Shown: piece after piece, positions 3,708 to 19,572 of the stretch
Numbering within the stretch: the stretch's first letter is position 1
How the letters are laid out: each line of letters opens with the position of its first letter
Virus record (IMG/VR): IMGVR_UViG_3300028569_000019
Span: 1 to 64,000 of that record
Origin: a virus
Reading direction: 5' to 3' (one strand)
Length of the DNA: 64,000 nucleotides
Program-made: the position numbers and the translations under genes
The notes under the pieces: generated by a model
What the model was told of the DNA's origin: nothing
Seen by the model: the letters and a program-made list of their open reading frames with translations, nothing else
The model's database searches: none

Positions 3708-3890
3708 AATTATGTCACTAAGCGAATCGCAGTTAGCAATATTGAGTTGGATATTTACGACAGGATGTTCTGTATTATTGATTGCATCTACTGCAATAAT
3801 ATTGTATATGATGTATTTGTTTGTGAAGTTGGTTAAAAATTTCTCAAAAAAATATTGACGAATATATAGTTGTGTGATATATATTATTAA

Positions 3891-3968
3891 ATGAGAGTCA
3901 AGTATACACATATTAAACGCTGGGATACATTTACAAATTGTGAATGTCTGGCGGTTGATATTGTATAG
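3891..3968 (+). CDS. Putative attenuator leader peptide 1 (MRVKYTHIKRWDTFTNCECLAVDIV*), not in ORF track
   Basis: ATG 3891 lies 13 nt after a TATATATT promoter-like motif; TAG stop at 3966-3968; last codons overlap the antiterminator strand; codons match tRNA array 1. Confidence 0.7.
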   Translation: MRVKYTHIKRWDTFTNCECLAVDIV

Positions 3969-4035
3969 TATGTGAACACCTTCTTGTACAAAAAATCAAC
4001 CGCCAATCCAAAAAGATGGCGGTTTTTTGTTTTTT
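3949..4035 (+). terminator. Attenuator 1: overlapping antiterminator and intrinsic terminator
   Basis: TGGCGGTTGAT (3949-3959) pairs perfectly with ATCAACCGCCA (3995-4005); alternatively AACCGCCA (3998-4005) pairs with TGGCGGTT (4017-4024), followed by a U-tract. Confidence 0.8.
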
Positions 4036-4173: not shown

Positions 4174-4293
4174 GTGGAAGGCTTGAAACTCCATCTGTTG
4201 AGCCACCGCCAGTAACCAAAGGTAAAGACTGGGAAAATCAATTGATTGGTCCGTGGGTGTTATGCTGGAATACAGAACCCATAGGGCGATAAT
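4174..4293 (+). ncRNA. Conserved structured leader RNA, copy 1
   Basis: Shares TTGAAACTCYATCTGWTG and TTGATYGGTC..TGGGTGTTATGCTGRAATACAGAACCCAT..GGCGATAAT with 14042-14137; compensatory base changes between the copies. Confidence 0.65.
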
Positions 4294-4342
4294 GACATAA
4301 CTGAGGTTATTGTTATTTGGTATAAGAATAAAAGATTTTTAT

Positions 4343-4601: not shown

Positions 4602-4676
4602 TACCCTATCGTCTAGTAACTAGGACTAGTGTCCCGGACGACACTAACCTTGGTTTGAATCCAAGTGGGGTAACCA
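4602..4676 (+). tRNA. Atypical tRNA-like gene, anticodon undetermined (8-nt loop CCCGGACG)
   Basis: Intact acceptor TACCCTA/TGGGGTA, Glu-type D arm, T arm and CCA, but the anticodon arm AGTGT-CCCGGACG-ACACT lacks U33. Confidence 0.6.
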
Positions 4677-12822: not shown

Positions 12823-13794
12823 ATGTCATCAACAAGTGGATCAAGTGGTAGTAGCGGAATAGGCACTTCCTCATTAAAAACAATAGTTGTTAAATCAACG
12901 TCTGTGGTAACTAAATTTATATCTAATATATTGTTACCAAAAGTGGTACAAAGTACGATAGTGGGTAGTAGTGGTATAGGTGGCAGTAGCGGGACGGGTG
13001 GTAGTAGTGGATCTTCTGATGGTATGCGTACTAACTGGACATCGAATATCAAATCCACAGTGATAAAAATGATGGCAGCTAGCAAAGACCGCAGTTTATT
13101 CAGTGCGTTTATCCAATCTACTTTTTCTTGGGTTCGAAATTCTGCTTCTTGGGTAATATCTTATAAATGGACAGGTACTGCAGCTGGTATAAATGGACTC
13201 GGTGGTGTTGGAGGTGGAACTCTTATTACTAGCAAGCATGTCTTATTGTCTGCACACGTTCCTTATTTGACAAATTCAGAAATCTTTTTTGTTAACGATA
13301 ATAATGTGACTTTCAAGTACAACATTATCAAGATCGACAAGATTGATGGAAGTGATATTGCAATTGGAACGCTTGATCGATCAATTGATAGTAGTTTGAA
13401 GATATATTCGGTATTACCAGACAACTGGCAACAATACATCAAAACTGAAATTAATAGTGTGATGGGGGTACAATTCATAACTTTACGGTTACCTGTTTTG
13501 TTCCTCAATCAAGACAAAAAAGTTTCAATTGGAGATATGACCCGATTAATTGATGCAGTTGCTGATGTAGAAGCTTCAGTATTTGGCACATCACAGTCGT
13601 ATTATGAGACACAAAGAGGTGGTGATTCTGGAAATCCAATATTTGTGCAGGTAGGTAGTGAATTGGCACTATTGGGTACGTGGTATAAAGTTGGAGCTTT
13701 TGCTTGGCTAATCAGTAGGAAAACTCAAGTCGAGTCTATTATTGGTCAAAAACTGAACGTAATTAATATGACTGGATTTGAGAAGGTATCCTGA
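12823..13794 (+). CDS. Trypsin-like serine protease with Ser/Gly-rich N-terminus
   Basis: GTLITSKHVLLSAH (His), SDIAIG (Asp), GGDSGNP (Ser). Confidence 0.85.
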   Translation: MSSTSGSSGSSGIGTSSLKTIVVKSTSVVTKFISNILLPKVVQSTIVGSSGIGGSSGTGGSSGSSDGMRTNWTSNIKSTVIKMMAASKDRSLFSAFIQSTFSWVRNSASWVISYKWTGTAAGINGLGGVGGGTLITSKHVLLSAHVPYLTNSEIFFVNDNNVTFKYNIIKIDKIDGSDIAIGTLDRSIDSSLKIYSVLPDNWQQYIKTEINSVMGVQFITLRLPVLFLNQDKKVSIGDMTRLIDAVADVEASVFGTSQSYYETQRGGDSGNPIFVQVGSELALLGTWYKVGAFAWLISRKTQVESIIGQKLNVINMTGFEKVS

Positions 13795-13872
13795 ACGTTA
13801 ACGAAATTTATTTAAAACTTATTAAATAATTTTATTGATTTTCAATTTCAAACACTATATATTAGTACGAAT

Positions 13873-13926
13873 ATGAATTTAATTTCACAACCTAGTCAAG
13901 CCAGTCAACTCCCATCAGGAAGTTGA
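13873..13926 (+). CDS. Putative attenuator leader peptide 2 (MNLISQPSQASQLPSGS*), not in ORF track
   Basis: ATG 13873 follows a TATATATT motif; TGA at 13924-13926 lies just before the antiterminator strand; codons match tRNA array 2. Confidence 0.7.
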   Translation: MNLISQPSQASQLPSGS

Positions 13927-13928
13927 GT

Positions 13929-13993
13929 ACGAGGTTGTTTGCTAAAAAGATCCAACCCGTCACTCTTAAAAAGAATGATGGGTTTTTGATTTT
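13929..13993 (+). terminator. Attenuator 2: overlapping antiterminator and intrinsic terminator
   Basis: ACG(A)GGTTG (13929-13937) pairs with CAACCCGT (13953-13960); alternatively AACCCGTCA (13954-13962) pairs with TGATGGGTT (13976-13984), followed by a U-tract. Confidence 0.72.
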
Positions 13994-13998
13994 AATGG

Positions 13999-14026
13999 TT
14001 GACAATTTGACGAAGTATGGTAAATT
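13999..14026 (+). promoter_or_regulatory. Sigma70-type promoter of tRNA array 2
   Basis: TTGACA-16 nt-TAAATT with extended -10 TG. Confidence 0.6.
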
Positions 14027-14041
14027 AGAAATATAACGAAC

Positions 14042-14137
14042 GGGGTTGAAACTCTATCTGATGTCCCCAACATAAGTTAAAACATTTGATCGGTCACTGG
14101 GTGTTATGCTGAAATACAGAACCCATCTGGCGATAAT
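14042..14137 (+). ncRNA. Conserved structured leader RNA, copy 2
   Basis: Homologous to 4174-4293; same position between the promoter and the first tRNA. Confidence 0.65.
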
Positions 14138-14166
14138 TAAAATAAAGTATATAACAATTTTTAAAT

Positions 14167-14240
14167 GGGGGTTTAGTTTAAAAGCAAAACAGTAGTTTTA
14201 CACACTTCAAACGGTGGAGCATTACCATCAACCCCTACCA
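14167..14240 (+). tRNA. tRNA-Val(UAC)
   Basis: GGGGGTT/AACCCCT acceptor, loop TT-TAC-AC, CCA. Confidence 0.85.
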
Positions 14241-14308
14241 TTTTTAAAATAAATTAATATTTTAATTGAACTCTTACCTATTTATTACCATAGACATAAT
14301 AATGTAAT

Positions 14309-15004
14309 ATGAAAAGTAAAATTTGGAATATTTCAACGGAGGAATTTAAAAAAATTATAAAAAACAATTGTTGTATGGCAGATGTTTGTAGAACTTTGAA
14401 TATGAGAAAAGAGGGTGGTAATTATAGAACTATTAAACGTAGAATTGAATTTGAAAAAATTGATACTTCACATTTTCTTTCCAAAAAAGAAATTTTTTCA
14501 ATTAAAAATGTAAATACAGTTTCAAAAGATGAACTTTTACTTAGATTAAAAGAAAATACTGACATAGAAACTGTGTGGCTTAAAAATAAATTAATAAAAT
14601 TCAATTTATTTGACAATAAATGTGCAGAATGTTCTATAAAAGATTTTTGGAATAATAAACCACTTAAATTACAATTAGATCACATTGATGGTGATCATTT
14701 TAATAATACATTATCTAATCTTAGATTATTATGTCCAAATTGTCATTCACAGACTCATACATTTTGTGGGAAATCTAAAAAAACTAAAAAATATAAATGT
14801 TCAGAATGTAACACTGAAACAAGTGGTTATACAAATATTTGTAGAACGTGTTCAATGAAAAAACTAAGAAAAGTTGAAAGACCAACAAAAGATGTTTTAC
14901 AACAAGAAATTAAAAATAATACATTTATATCACTTAGTAAAAAATACGGTGTATCAGATAATGCAATTAGAAAATGGTGTAAATATTATTCAATAGATTT
15001 TTAA
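14309..15004 (+). CDS. HNH homing endonuclease with C-terminal HTH
   Basis: LQLDHIDGDHFNNTLSNLRLLCPNCHSQT; KKYGVSDNAIRKW. Confidence 0.92.
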   Translation: MKSKIWNISTEEFKKIIKNNCCMADVCRTLNMRKEGGNYRTIKRRIEFEKIDTSHFLSKKEIFSIKNVNTVSKDELLLRLKENTDIETVWLKNKLIKFNLFDNKCAECSIKDFWNNKPLKLQLDHIDGDHFNNTLSNLRLLCPNCHSQTHTFCGKSKKTKKYKCSECNTETSGYTNICRTCSMKKLRKVERPTKDVLQQEIKNNTFISLSKKYGVSDNAIRKWCKYYSIDF

Positions 15005-15005
15005 T

Positions 15006-15083
15006 CCATCCGTCGCCTAACTTGGTATGGCACTTCATTTGGGGTGAAGAATAATAGGCGTTCAAATCGCCTCGGGTGGACCA
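15006..15083 (+). tRNA. tRNA-Pro(UGG)
   Basis: CTTCA-TTTGGGG-TGAAG, canonical T arm, CCA. Confidence 0.92.
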
Positions 15084-15090
15084 TTTTAAC

Positions 15091-15168
15091 GGCTATGTAG
15101 ACCAACTGGAAGGAGTCGTCTGTCTTAGAAACAGAATAGTATTGGTTCAAATCCAATCATAGCTACCA
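15091..15168 (+). tRNA. tRNA-Leu(UAG) copy 1, short variable loop
   Basis: TCTGT-CTTAGAA-ACAGA, A73, CCA. Confidence 0.85.
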
Positions 15169-15177
15169 TTTTGTAAT

Positions 15178-15255
15178 GGCTACGTAGCCCAACTGGAAGG
15201 AGTCGTCTGTCTTAGAAACAGAATAGTATTGGTTCAAATCCAATCATAGCTACCA
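15178..15255 (+). tRNA. tRNA-Leu(UAG) copy 2 (chimera of copies 3 and 1)
   Basis: 5' end matches copy 3 and the rest matches copy 1, giving C-A and C-T mismatches. Confidence 0.7.
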
Positions 15256-15264
15256 TTTTGTAAT

Positions 15265-15342
15265 GGCTACGTAGCCCAACTGGAAGGAGGCGTCTGTCTT
15301 AGAAACAGAATAGTACTGGTTCGAATCCAGTCGTAGCTACCA
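15265..15342 (+). tRNA. tRNA-Leu(UAG) copy 3, short variable loop
   Basis: GGCTACG/CGTAGCT acceptor, same anticodon arm, CCA. Confidence 0.85.
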
Positions 15343-15351
15343 ATTTTTTGT

Positions 15352-15444
15352 GGATGATAGGCAGATATAAGCTGGCTGCACTAGTCTTGAAAACTAGGTC
15401 CGTCTAAAAAACGGAGGTCCGGGCAGTACGGACATCATCCGCCA
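15352..15444 (+). tRNA. tRNA-Ser(UGA)
   Basis: CTAGT-CTTGAAA-ACTAG, long variable arm, G73, CCA. Confidence 0.88.
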
Positions 15445-15451
15445 TTTTAAT

Positions 15452-15516
15452 ACAACTCCACTTGACAATGGAACCGAAGACTGATAATATCGTCTCTTGA
15501 AGAAATCGGAGTTTGT
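15452..15516 (+). ncRNA. Unassigned small structured RNA between the two tRNA-Ser genes
   Basis: ACAACTCC/GGAGTTTGT closing stem; inner AGAC/GTCT hairpin. Confidence 0.35.
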
Positions 15517-15528
15517 CAAAAGATTTAT

Positions 15529-15619
15529 GGAAAGGTGTCTGAGTGGTCTAAAGAGACAGTTTGCTAAACTGTTGTGGCCTAAAAAACCACCGAGGGTTCG
15601 AATCCCTCCCTTTCCGCCA
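15529..15619 (+). tRNA. tRNA-Ser(GCU)
   Basis: ACAGT-TTGCTAA-ACTGT, long variable arm, G73, CCA. Confidence 0.93.
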
Positions 15620-15622
15620 TTT

Positions 15623-15696
15623 GCGGGTATAGCTTAGTGGTAAAGCGCCAGTCTTCCAAACTGGCAAGGTGAGTTCGATTCTCACTACCCGCTCCA
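15623..15696 (+). tRNA. tRNA-Gly(UCC)
   Basis: GCGGGTA/TACCCGC acceptor, CCAGT-CTTCCAA-ACTGG, U73, CCA. Confidence 0.95.
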
Positions 15697-15703
15697 ATTT
15701 AAC

Positions 15704-15778
15704 TGGGGATTGATTGTAATAGTAGCAAATCAGACTTTGAATCTGAGAGAATCGGAGCGTAACCGGTATCCCCTGCCA
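15704..15778 (+). tRNA. tRNA-Gln(UUG)
   Basis: TCAGA-CTTTGAA-TCTGA, U1 mismatch, G73, CCA. Confidence 0.85.
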
Positions 15779-15845
15779 TTTTATTTAATTAAATATTCAA
15801 TGATAAAATCGAACTTTCATTCTGTTCTTACATATTTATGTATGT

Positions 15846-16526
15846 ATGAGTAAAAAAAGAACAAGTATTATCTGGAAAATTTCAAACGAAGATTTTGCCA
15901 ACTTAGTGAAAAATAGCAAAACTATGACTGAGTTACTAAAGCACTTTGGTATGGAAAATAAAGGTGGAAATTTTAAAACGTGTAAAAAAAGAATTAATGA
16001 ATTACAAATTAATACTAGTCATTTTCTTTCTAGGACACAATCAAGTACTTGGAAGAGACAAGTTACAAAAGAAGATTTATTAAAAAAATTGACAACAAAT
16101 TCGTGTTATAATAGAACAGATTTAAAAAAACGTTTAATTAAATTTGATATAATAAAATATGAATGTGCAAATTGTAAAAATAATGGCATCTGGGGAAATA
16201 AAAAATTAACTCTTCAATTAGAACATAAAAATGGAATATCAGATGATAATAGATTTGAAAATTTAGAATTTTTATGTCCTAATTGTCATAGTCAAACGTC
16301 TACATTTGCAGGTCGTTCTCTAAATAAACACCGCATTAAACCATCGGAAATAAATCCTGATTGGAGACATCAACCAAGATATGAAAAAAGAAAAGTTGAT
16401 AGACCTTCAAAAGAAATTTTAGAAAAAGAAATTAAAGAAAATACTATGGTTAGTCTTGGGAAGAAATACGGTGTATCGGATAATTCCATAAGAAAATGGT
16501 GTAAAAATTATGGTATCAATTTATAA
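15846..16526 (+). CDS. HNH homing endonuclease (paralog of 14309..15004)
   Basis: LQLEHKNGISDDNRFENLEFLCPNCHSQT; KKYGVSDNSIRKW. Confidence 0.92.
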   Translation: MSKKRTSIIWKISNEDFANLVKNSKTMTELLKHFGMENKGGNFKTCKKRINELQINTSHFLSRTQSSTWKRQVTKEDLLKKLTTNSCYNRTDLKKRLIKFDIIKYECANCKNNGIWGNKKLTLQLEHKNGISDDNRFENLEFLCPNCHSQTSTFAGRSLNKHRIKPSEINPDWRHQPRYEKRKVDRPSKEILEKEIKENTMVSLGKKYGVSDNSIRKWCKNYGINL

Positions 16527-16529
16527 TGA

Positions 16530-16625
16530 TGTGCGTGTTGGGTGGAAACGTCCAACAGCGTGAGGGACACGATACACCCCTGTATGTCTGACCCGGACGA
16601 ATCTGATCCAGATAGGATAGGGTAA
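16530..16625 (+). ncRNA. Unassigned GC-rich structured RNA
   Basis: TGTTGGGTG-GAAA-CGTCCAACA GNRA hairpin, GAC..ATACA-CCCC-TGTAT.GTC hairpin, ACCC/GGGT stem. Confidence 0.5.
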
Positions 16626-16671
16626 ATTTTTAGTTTGACTTATACTATATATTGGTGTAAGATTTTTAAAT

Positions 16672-16746
16672 GGGCTTGTGGTGCTAGTGGTAACACGACC
16701 GGTTTGCATCCGGTAATCTCCAGTTCGACCCTGGACAGGTCCACCA
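16672..16746 (+). tRNA. tRNA-Ala(UGC)
   Basis: G3:U70 pair, ACCGG-TTTGCAT-CCGGT, CCA. Confidence 0.92.
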
Positions 16747-16795
16747 TTTTAAATTAATGTATGTTGATTAGTTTCAACTATATATTAATCATACC

Positions 16796-16871
16796 GCACT
16801 AGTAGCTCAATTGGTAGAGCGTATCGTTGCCAACGATAAGGTTGTCGGATCGTACCCGACCTAGTGCTCCA
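16796..16871 (+). tRNA. tRNA-Gly(GCC)
   Basis: GCACTAG/CTAGTGC acceptor, TATCG-TTGCCAA-CGATA, U73, CCA. Confidence 0.92.
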
Positions 16872-16928
16872 TCTTAATTTTGTGTGATCAAAAATCACTT
16901 TTTGCTCCGAAGACTACTATTTATTAGT

Positions 16929-17786
16929 ATGAGTAAGATACCAGTAAATTGTAAAATCTGTAATGTTGAGTTTGTAAAATATGAAAGTGAAATAAAAAGA
17001 ACTAACAATCATTTTTGTTCTAATAAATGTTCAATATTTTTTAATACTCAATTAAAAAAAATATATTTAGAAAAAAGAAAAACAGATTATTATAGCAGTC
17101 CAAAAAAATGTATAAATTGTGAAAATATAATTGATTTTGAAAATAAAATTAAAAATAAATATTGTTCTGTAAGATGTACTGCGATTTATACTCAAAAAAA
17201 TGGAGGACATTGTAAATGGTCTAACGACGATAAAAAAAGATTAGCTGAATTGGCAAAAAACAATTCTAAATTTTGTGGTTGGAATAGAAAAGAAAAAATT
17301 AAAAAAGAATGTGAGACTTGCAAAAAAGAATTTGAAGTGATACCATCTTTAAAAGATAGAAATTGTTGTTCACGACAATGTAAAAATGAATGGATAAAAA
17401 AAACAGATTATCTTAAAAATAAAGGACTCGGAGGATATCGTATAAATAGTGGAACTAGTAAAAGAGGTTGGTATAAAGGATATTTTTGTGGTAGTAGTTG
17501 GGAATTGGCGTGGGTAATATATAATTTAGAACACAATATACAATTTAAACGAAATACAGATAGTTTTGAATATACGTATAATGGAACAATCAAAAAATAT
17601 TATCCAGATTTTAAAATAGACGATGTTTATATTGAAATAAAAGGATATCATTCAAAACAATTTGACGCAAAACAATTACAATTTCCACACAAATTAAAAG
17701 TTTTTCACAAATCGGAATTAAAAGAAATTTTAAAGTATGTAAAAGATAAATATGGGAAAAATTTTACATACTTATATGGGAAGTGA
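16929..17786 (+). CDS. Zinc-finger + PD-(D/E)XK putative homing endonuclease (start moved to ATG 16929)
   Basis: FCSxxC repeats shared with 9535..10308; GSSWE...YYPDF...IEIKG; TATTTAT motif at 16918. Confidence 0.78.
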   Translation: MSKIPVNCKICNVEFVKYESEIKRTNNHFCSNKCSIFFNTQLKKIYLEKRKTDYYSSPKKCINCENIIDFENKIKNKYCSVRCTAIYTQKNGGHCKWSNDDKKRLAELAKNNSKFCGWNRKEKIKKECETCKKEFEVIPSLKDRNCCSRQCKNEWIKKTDYLKNKGLGGYRINSGTSKRGWYKGYFCGSSWELAWVIYNLEHNIQFKRNTDSFEYTYNGTIKKYYPDFKIDDVYIEIKGYHSKQFDAKQLQFPHKLKVFHKSELKEILKYVKDKYGKNFTYLYGK

Positions 17787-19186: not shown

Positions 19187-19572
19187 GGGGATGTGTAGAT
19201 TCGACATAGATAAATATCTATTGTTAGGCACGTAGAGGATAATAGTTGGCCTCTTTAAAAGTTCTATTGAAAATTAACTGCTGAAGATAACGTAGTTAGC
19301 TATGACTTCTCTTATGATGACGTTGTAGCCCTTGCAGCCTAAGTTGTTGCACATTCAATACAATGAAGTCTGATAGTTGTGTTGAGTGTAAATTATTGGA
19401 CTGGACCAAATATTTGATTTGCGTAAATGGTCGAGATATTAGTAAATCTTAAGGGTAATATTTTTAGATATTTTTCATTATTACTTCCCAACAATTTAAA
19501 ATATATAAACGTGTAGTCTGGCAGTAATAATTTTTTATGGACGCGGGGTGCGACTCCCCGCCATCTCCACCA
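19187..19572 (+). ncRNA. ssrA: tmRNA; tag peptide AEDNVVSYDFSYDDVVALAA* (19280-19342)
   Basis: GGGGATG/CATCTCC-ACCA acceptor with G3:U, GATTCGAC 5' motif, T arm, resume codon after TAACT, tag ending in ALAA. Confidence 0.93.

Follow-up and report, generated by a model that had tools for sequence, protein, structure and literature searches.

Transcription attenuators that work through a leader peptide are known from the amino-acid operons of enterobacteria (trpL, hisL, leuL, pheL, thrL, and ilvL), and the arrays of transfer RNA (tRNA) genes carried by phages are usually viewed as constitutive helpers of codon usage or as spares against tRNA-cleaving host defences. In mycobacteria, stalling on the upstream open reading frame (uORF) of whiB7 (wblC) is proposed to cause antitermination, with the amino acids of the uORF setting the shortages that are sensed, and the attenuator is reported to be activated by knock-down of tRNAs and tRNA synthetases (PMC10274678). 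Anabaena holds a cryptic tRNA operon that is induced under translational stress (PMC8421152) and for which a repressor, TrcR, has been described (PMC10272220). A published leader-peptide attenuator of tRNA genes was not found in our literature search. An analogy with Phe-rich leader attenuators of the Escherichia coli tRNA-Phe genes pheU and pheV did not hold, as no such leader is present upstream of pheV in the K-12 sequence (for K-12 pheU, the upstream intergenic gap is about 106 nucleotides [nt], judged from the annotation only). Here, we analyse a short leader unit, referred to as leader 2, that precedes the second tRNA array of an uncultured giant phage from lake water (IMG/VR virus record IMGVR_UViG_3300028569_000019).

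The window, i.e., the whole stretch of DNA analysed (64,000 nt), is the first 64 kb of this 96.8-kb record, estimated to be ~29% complete. It has a G+C content of 33%, carries two tRNA arrays and one transfer-messenger RNA (tmRNA), and the DNA sequencing runs holding its sequence come from lake and other fresh water. We read leader 2 tentatively, with slightly less than even confidence, as a ribosome-dependent transcription attenuator of the trp type, which would add regulated read-through from its own promoter, P0, to the constitutive output of a second promoter, P1.

The leader unit and its short reading frame

The unit starts with P0, a predicted sigma70-type promoter detected by a consensus scan (TTGATT, 17-nt spacer, TATATT; 13835..13863, plus strand, as are all features of the unit). 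Nine nucleotides separate the -10 box from the ATG of an open reading frame (ORF) of 17 codons (13873..13926, with ATG at 13873 and TGA at 13924-13926) that reads MNLISQPSQASQLPSGS, and the messenger RNA (mRNA) made from P0 would be leaderless or nearly so. A leaderless spacing of this kind is shared by other genes of the phage. Most genes of the whole record lack a Shine-Dalgarno site and carry ATATTTAT 5 to 8 nt before the ATG, which suggests a phage promoter motif giving leaderless or near-leaderless mRNAs. An earlier model-made reading of the letters alone (the sequence-only reading) had listed the codons of the ORF as TCA (two), AGT (three), CAA (three), CCT, CCA, GGA, GCC, CTC, and TTA, and this list was borne out.

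To compare the unit among viruses, we gathered 19 distinct homologous versions (16 plus 3) by way of the protein encoded upstream (323 residues, 3' end of the gene at 13794), a conserved ~100-nt element found downstream, and the pattern formed by two of the RNA segments described below (segments 2 and 3); in the scan with this last pattern, 10 of 16 new loci were chance matches in unrelated phages. In all 19 relatives (individual loci are given L numbers), the unit precedes P1, a tRNA-Val-Pro-Leu-Ser-Ser-Gly-Gln-Ala-Gly array, and then a tmRNA. Alignments showed that the P0 hexamers are conserved in 18 distinct relatives despite a diverging 17-nt spacer, along with a TATATATT box. In L056 and L063, a separate terminator lies immediately 5' of P0, which indicates that the leader is transcribed as a unit of its own and is no extension of the gene before it.

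Of the 19 distinct sequences, 18 have an uninterrupted ORF of exactly 17 codons, for which six versions of the peptide occur (MNLISQ.., MNSVSQ.., MISQSQ.., MISQSQPNQASQSPVGY, MILSSQPSLVSQAPSGY, and MNSKPQPSLASQFPSGY), and insertions and deletions in the alignment fall outside the ORF only. The placement of these insertions and deletions, and the fact that leaderless starts are normal in this phage, speak for a possible translation of the ORF. A shallow lineage (L007, L008, L036, and L040) carries an in-frame insertion of ~150 nt that gives an ORF of 66 codons, of which the last 13 are shared; at L007 4019-4219 it reads MVIEKTYKLV...SEPSQASQLPSES, and no homologue of its first 49 residues was found in the other viral loci collected. 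The idea that the 17-codon ORF is what remains of the 3' part of this longer form was considered and rejected, since the long form is restricted to one shallow lineage and all the deep-branching relatives (L017, L044, L026, L056, and L057) have 17 codons, so that the short form is ancestral and not a relic.

Leader 2 had been placed before array 2 by the sequence-only reading, but it does not adjoin the array: P1, the ~100-nt element, and genes for a tRNA (14167-14237) and an HNH protein (14309-15004) intervene. P1 (TTGACA, 16-nt spacer, TG-n-TAAATT; 13999..14026, plus strand) scored 10 of 12 in the scan, has an extended -10 box, and is invariant in the relatives. From its sequence, P1 would be the promoter of the tRNA array and looks constitutive.

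Alternative hairpins and their conservation

Minimum-free-energy folds of the leader RNA define four segments. Segment 1, ACAACCUAGUC (13887..13897), lies within codons 5-9 and pairs with segment 2, GAGUACGAGGUUG (13925..13937), whose partner can be either segment 1 or segment 3, acting in the latter case as the antiterminator strand. Segment 3, CAACCCGUCACUC (13953..13965), and segment 4 (13973-13984) are the 5' and 3' arms of an intrinsic terminator (13954..13993) made of a hairpin at 13954-13984 (3:4, -14.4 kcal/mol) followed by UUUUUGAUUUU. Between segments 1 and 2, an inner hairpin, UCAACUCC...GGAAGUUGA (13905..13926), takes in the stop codon and might act as a pause hairpin; the CAACT/AGTTG pairing that had been proposed there is present at 13906-13925. 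The competing strands named by the sequence-only reading are also in place, ACGAGGTTG (RNA ACGAGGUUG) at 13929-13937 and CAACCCGT (RNA CAACCCGU) at 13953-13960. The antiterminator itself had been described as an 8-bp bulged helix starting 2 nt past the TGA. Its strand is indeed within reach of a terminating ribosome, but the helix is longer, with 12 pairs and two bulges (GAGU-ACG-A-GGUUG), and already starts within the TGA, at its second base.

The hairpins 1:2, 2:3, and 3:4 are mutually exclusive and about equally stable, with energies among 11 representatives of -12 to -22, -11 to -17.7, and -13 to -16 kcal/mol, respectively. The region folds more stably than its shuffled versions (z = -4.1), and the best duplex between upstream RNA and the 5' arm of the terminator (-14.9 kcal/mol) was matched by only 0.2% of shuffles. 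In a survey of the terminators of this genome, strong upstream complementarity to the 5' arm was found only at the two that stand ahead of the tRNA-array promoters, with -14.9 here and -19.8 at 3998, while eight clean terminators elsewhere gave values of -3 to -10.

The sequence-only reading had suggested a comparative alignment of this intergenic region, and had staked its antiterminator on being conserved. In the alignment, P0, the ATG, the stop codon inside a hairpin, segments 1 to 4, and P1 are kept in the 19 relatives, and so is the 2:3 pairing, with duplex energies of -12.8 to -17.6 kcal/mol in 16 sequences. Three pairs of the inner hairpin show two-sided changes that preserve pairing, one pair of the terminator stem alternates between G-C and G-U, and the upper terminator stem varies compatibly among the relatives. 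For 1:2, pair counts gave 96% of cells paired and no covariation. The lineage of L056 and L057 has changed the upper stem of its terminator from CACUCU to CAUCC, which pairs well only with the GAUGACG segment 2 carried there. Native combinations of segments 2 and 3 were more stable than permuted ones (-14.4 versus -13.5 kcal/mol, p about 0.015). Loss of the antiterminator in the relatives with GAG in place of ACG was considered and rejected, as their GAGUGA pairs with UCACUC, and more strongly (-17.6 kcal/mol).

The leader ahead of array 1, attenuator 1 (3855-4030), had been called unrelated in sequence to leader 2. This was wrong: the terminator, the P0 motif, P1, and the ~100-nt element are homologous, which makes the two units paralogous modules. 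The terminators share the form CAACC(C)GTCAC...GTGACGG(G)TTTTT, attenuator 1 of the relatives reading CAACCGTCAC...GTGACGGTTTTTT. In attenuator 1, the 3' end of the ORF pairs with the terminator arm at about -20 kcal/mol, a value reached by 0 of 2,000 shuffles, and one pair of this helix, judged by eye, occurs as A-U, G-U, and G-C across relatives. The amino-acid sequence of the attenuator 1 peptide is conserved, as M(R/K)VxYT(H/N)IKRW(D/N)TFT. A further leader, unrelated in sequence, is found in L052 (3840-4060), where the ORF end and the stop codon pair with the terminator arm (-23.8 kcal/mol; 0 of 2,000 shuffles) and the tRNAs follow the terminator with no promoter in between; this is the classical leader arrangement. 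The leader of L032 (minus strand, about 12900-13160) is similar, weaker (p about 0.05), and also without a second promoter, and the peptides of L052 and L032 share KQHWFK. The mini-ORFs of attenuator 1, L052, and L032 have 23 to 33 codons.

All three share with leader 2 the order of promoter, mini-ORF, terminator, and then element and tRNAs, and the presence, at or beside the end of the ORF, of RNA complementary to the 5' arm of the terminator. Unlike in leader 2, the antiterminator strand lies in the ORF end, the peptides are conserved in amino acids, and there is no segment 1, hence the default without a ribosome would be read-through.

Ribosome geometry, codon content, and rival readings

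In leader 2, segment 2 takes in part of the stop codon and segment 1 falls within codons 5-9, a geometry that fits masking by a terminating versus a stalled ribosome. We mimicked the ribosome by masking leader nucleotides before folding in 10 sequences. The terminator formed in all 10 both without a mask and when the A site was placed on the stop codon; when it was placed on codon 9, the minimum-free-energy fold was the 2:3 hairpin in four.

If leader 2 is an attenuator of this type, host RNA polymerase would start at P0, and the 17 codons of a near-leaderless mRNA would be translated during ongoing transcription. With no ribosome, 1:2 and 3:4 would form, and an RNA of ~115 nt would end at about 13990. 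A ribosome at the TGA would cover segment 2, because this segment begins inside the stop codon, and the terminator would form again. A ribosome held at about codons 2-12, which are mostly Ser, Gln, Pro, and Ala, would instead cover segment 1 and free segment 2, which would pair with segment 3 before segment 4 is synthesised, blocking the terminator. Read-through from P0 would then pass P1, the conserved element, and the tRNA genes, supplementing the output of P1. The scheme presumes an active P0, translation of the ORF, a fold that responds to stalling, and a contribution of read-through that counts beside the output of P1. What the switch reads may be particular codons or the general speed of translation. 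RNA libraries of four studies yielded contigs confined to 13810-14176, several of them bridging the terminator and P1; one matches the window exactly over 13902-14137, and the flanks left uncovered are uninformative, as they differ among relatives. These contigs, which show neither RNA ends nor levels and may include DNA carry-over, hint only weakly at transcription of the unit and at occasional read-through.

The sequence-only reading had proposed that the leader codons mirror the tRNAs of array 2, and the matching tRNAs are present there, as claimed. Ten of the 16 leader codons are strictly cognate to array-2 tRNAs (3.9 expected), and 14 of 16 residues belong to the set carried by the array (V, P, L, S, G, Q, and A); compared with 16-codon windows of the ORFs of this phage, both figures fall in the top 0.6 to 0.7%. 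At positions outside the helices, replacement codons in the peptide variants are often still cognate (CTA, GTA, GCA, TCA, and CCA, counted by hand), and in leader 1, the ORF of attenuator 1 (MRVKYTHIKRWDTFTNCECLAVDIV), 19 of 24 residues belong to the amino-acid set of array 1 as found in relatives. We take this composition as suggestive only. It is rather doubtful, though conceivable, that these giant freshwater phages carry tiny leaderless test genes, written largely in the amino acids of the array behind them, that gauge decoding capacity via a terminator/antiterminator switch. If so, a tRNA shortage or a tRNA-targeting host defence would raise exactly the phage tRNAs that are lacking.

Several caveats attach to the codon match and to ribosome-dependent attenuation. 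The mirroring of codons holds as an excess of cognate codons (top 0.7%), but the test was post hoc (nominal about 0.007), the match is largely forced by helix nucleotides (CAACCU encodes Gln-Pro, AGUCAA Ser-Gln, and CC/GG Pro/Gly), and it fails in the distant relative L052, where 16 of 32 residues come from the set of its own array; moreover, leader 2 has no run of identical codons of the hisL or pheL kind. Substitutions in the ORF are distributed over the three codon positions as 6:8:8, with no third-position bias, and the conserved residues (Gln6-Pro7, Ser11-Gln12, Pro14, and Gly16) are precisely the ones whose codons lie in helices. No core pair of 1:2 or 2:3 varies, and covariation cannot confirm those helices, while the advantage of native over permuted combinations amounts essentially to one evolutionary event, in the lineage of L056 and L057. 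Segment 1 resembles segment 3 and segment 2 resembles segment 4, so that a duplicated hairpin would yield the 2:3 pairing without selection. With codon 9 masked, the terminator is still the best fold at equilibrium in 6 of 10 sequences, so the switch would need to be kinetic; in trp attenuation, the choice of fold is kinetic. The near-consensus P1 stands between the terminator and the tRNAs, giving the downstream genes a promoter of their own, and at this place regulated read-through would at most supplement strong constitutive expression. Finally, the RNA signal comes from assembled contigs, blind to RNA ends and perhaps including DNA.

The same features can be arranged differently. The unit could produce a small stable RNA, the ~115-nt transcript from P0 to the terminator acting in trans or being a by-product, with an incidental ORF. 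A structure made of an unpaired 5' stretch, then a long hairpin and the terminator hairpin, in a unit with its own promoter and terminator, would suit such an RNA, as would the conservation, which tracks the RNA helices and not the peptide, and the almost invariant unpaired AGUCAAGCCAG, which is seed-like; contigs covering the unit are present in the RNA libraries of four studies, and at 33% G+C a run of 16 sense codons is no rarity (estimated at ~0.3 per frame). However, we found no target complementary to 13888-13908 within the window, the spacing of promoter and ATG is the leaderless one of real genes of the phage, and the length of 17 codons is fixed over six peptide variants, with insertions and deletions only outside. 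Attenuator 1 and the leaders of L052 and L032 encode clearly conserved peptides at the same position, and the mimicry of the terminator 3' arm by segment 2 is left unexplained, all of which makes a small RNA unlikely in our view. A peptide of 17 residues that is itself functional, followed by an ordinary terminator, appears very improbable: the ORF is open in all relatives and in one lineage extends in frame to 66 codons, but the peptide is of low complexity (Ser, Gln, and Pro), varies wherever the RNA helix does not fix a position, and shows no third-position bias, and the 49 residues that head the long form are confined to that lineage.

A further alternative is an unregulated mini-unit or insulator, in which a relic mini-gene with a duplicated terminator stops transcription from P0 and from upstream before P1, the 2:3 pairing being a side effect. 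The likeness of segments 1 and 3 and of segments 2 and 4, the U-rich UUGUUUGCU after the first hairpin, and core pairs without covariation are what a duplication would look like, and P1 makes attenuation dispensable for expression of the tRNAs. Against this, upstream transcription already has its own terminator in L056 and L063, a dedicated conserved promoter feeding only a terminator would be purposeless, and the other terminators of this genome have no such partners. In diverged lineages with a changed upper stem of the terminator, the 2:3 complementarity is retained and even strengthened, and L052 keeps the plan without a second promoter. We consider the insulator, like the small RNA, unlikely, and retain ribosome-dependent attenuation as our tentative reading of leader 2.

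Downstream genes and comparison with known systems

Past P1, a transcribed element of ~100 nt (14040..14140, plus strand) is repeated before array 1 (second copy, 4180-4295) and was found in 43 viral loci, with no match in Rfam; in L058, L066, and L070, an unrelated stretch of ~150 nt takes its place. The first tRNA of the unit (14167..14237, plus strand; Rfam, 45.8 bits) was missed by ARAGORN and looks like a degenerate relative of the tRNA-Val(UAC) of the relatives; it has an odd T-arm, and its anticodon was read by eye as UAC. The remainder of array 2 extends over 15006-16871, where ARAGORN identified Pro-UGG, Leu-UAG (three copies), Ser-GCU, Gly-UCC, Ala-UGC, and Gly-GCC; Rfam added Gln-UUG (15705-15775, anticodon by eye), and Ser-UGA (15351-15445, anticodon also by eye) has homologues in L026 and L020 that are Ser(tga) in ARAGORN. 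Between tRNA-Ser(UGA) and tRNA-Ser(GCU) there is a strong sigma70-like promoter (TTGACA-17-TAATAT, 15456-15490), kept in relatives. In array 1, a tRNA-like gene at 4602-4676 has a four-letter anticodon according to ARAGORN, cgga in the window and ctct in relatives (L015 9467-9542, L019 2645-2720, L049 3310-3385, and L031 5562-5637), and is possibly a tRNA whose anticodon loop is unusual.

Three HNH homing-endonuclease genes, identified with Pfam and PHROGs, are inserted among the tRNA genes (14309-15004, 15846-16526, and 16884-17786); at the site of the first, tRNA-Val and tRNA-Pro are adjacent in the relatives. Just past array 2 lies the phage-encoded tmRNA (19187-19572; Rfam, 101.6 bits), found at the same place in relatives, with the tag peptide AEDNVISYNFTSRDAVALAA. 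Among the neighbouring genes, Pfam and PHROGs recognised HNH endonucleases and a methyltransferase and nothing else, and among GenBank phage records the HNH gene was the sole match, with no cultured close relative found. Within 13780-14320, a tRNA was the sole Rfam match even with E-values up to 5, and over the whole window leader/attenuator families and the T-box gave no match at the gathering score.

The module combines small size with autonomy and conservation and, if functional, would serve as a compact sensor of translation stress. A phage would then measure the speed of ribosomes and top up its tRNAs on demand, and leader-peptide attenuation would reach beyond amino-acid operons, into tRNA genes and viruses.

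Among described systems, the Anabaena operon resembles leader 2, as read here, in being an accessory tRNA array switched on by impaired translation (PMC8421152), and differs in being a cellular array under the control of a ribbon-helix-helix repressor (PMC8421152, PMC10272220). The whiB7 attenuator shares with leader 2, as read here, a short upstream ORF on which stalling would lead to antitermination; it differs in controlling a transcription factor in a cellular genome, in being enriched in Ala, and in being unlinked to tRNA genes or phages (PMC10274678). The attenuators of amino-acid operons have in common with leader 2 a promoter, a short leader ORF, the exclusive pairings 1:2, 2:3, and 3:4 with 3:4 as an intrinsic terminator, a stop codon placed so that a terminating ribosome would mask segment 2, and a comparable energy ladder. 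Leader 2 departs from them in having a phage tRNA array downstream in place of biosynthetic genes, a predicted leaderless mRNA, interleaved Ser, Gln, and Pro codons with no run of a single codon, a strong second promoter between the terminator and the putatively regulated genes, and no sequence similarity.

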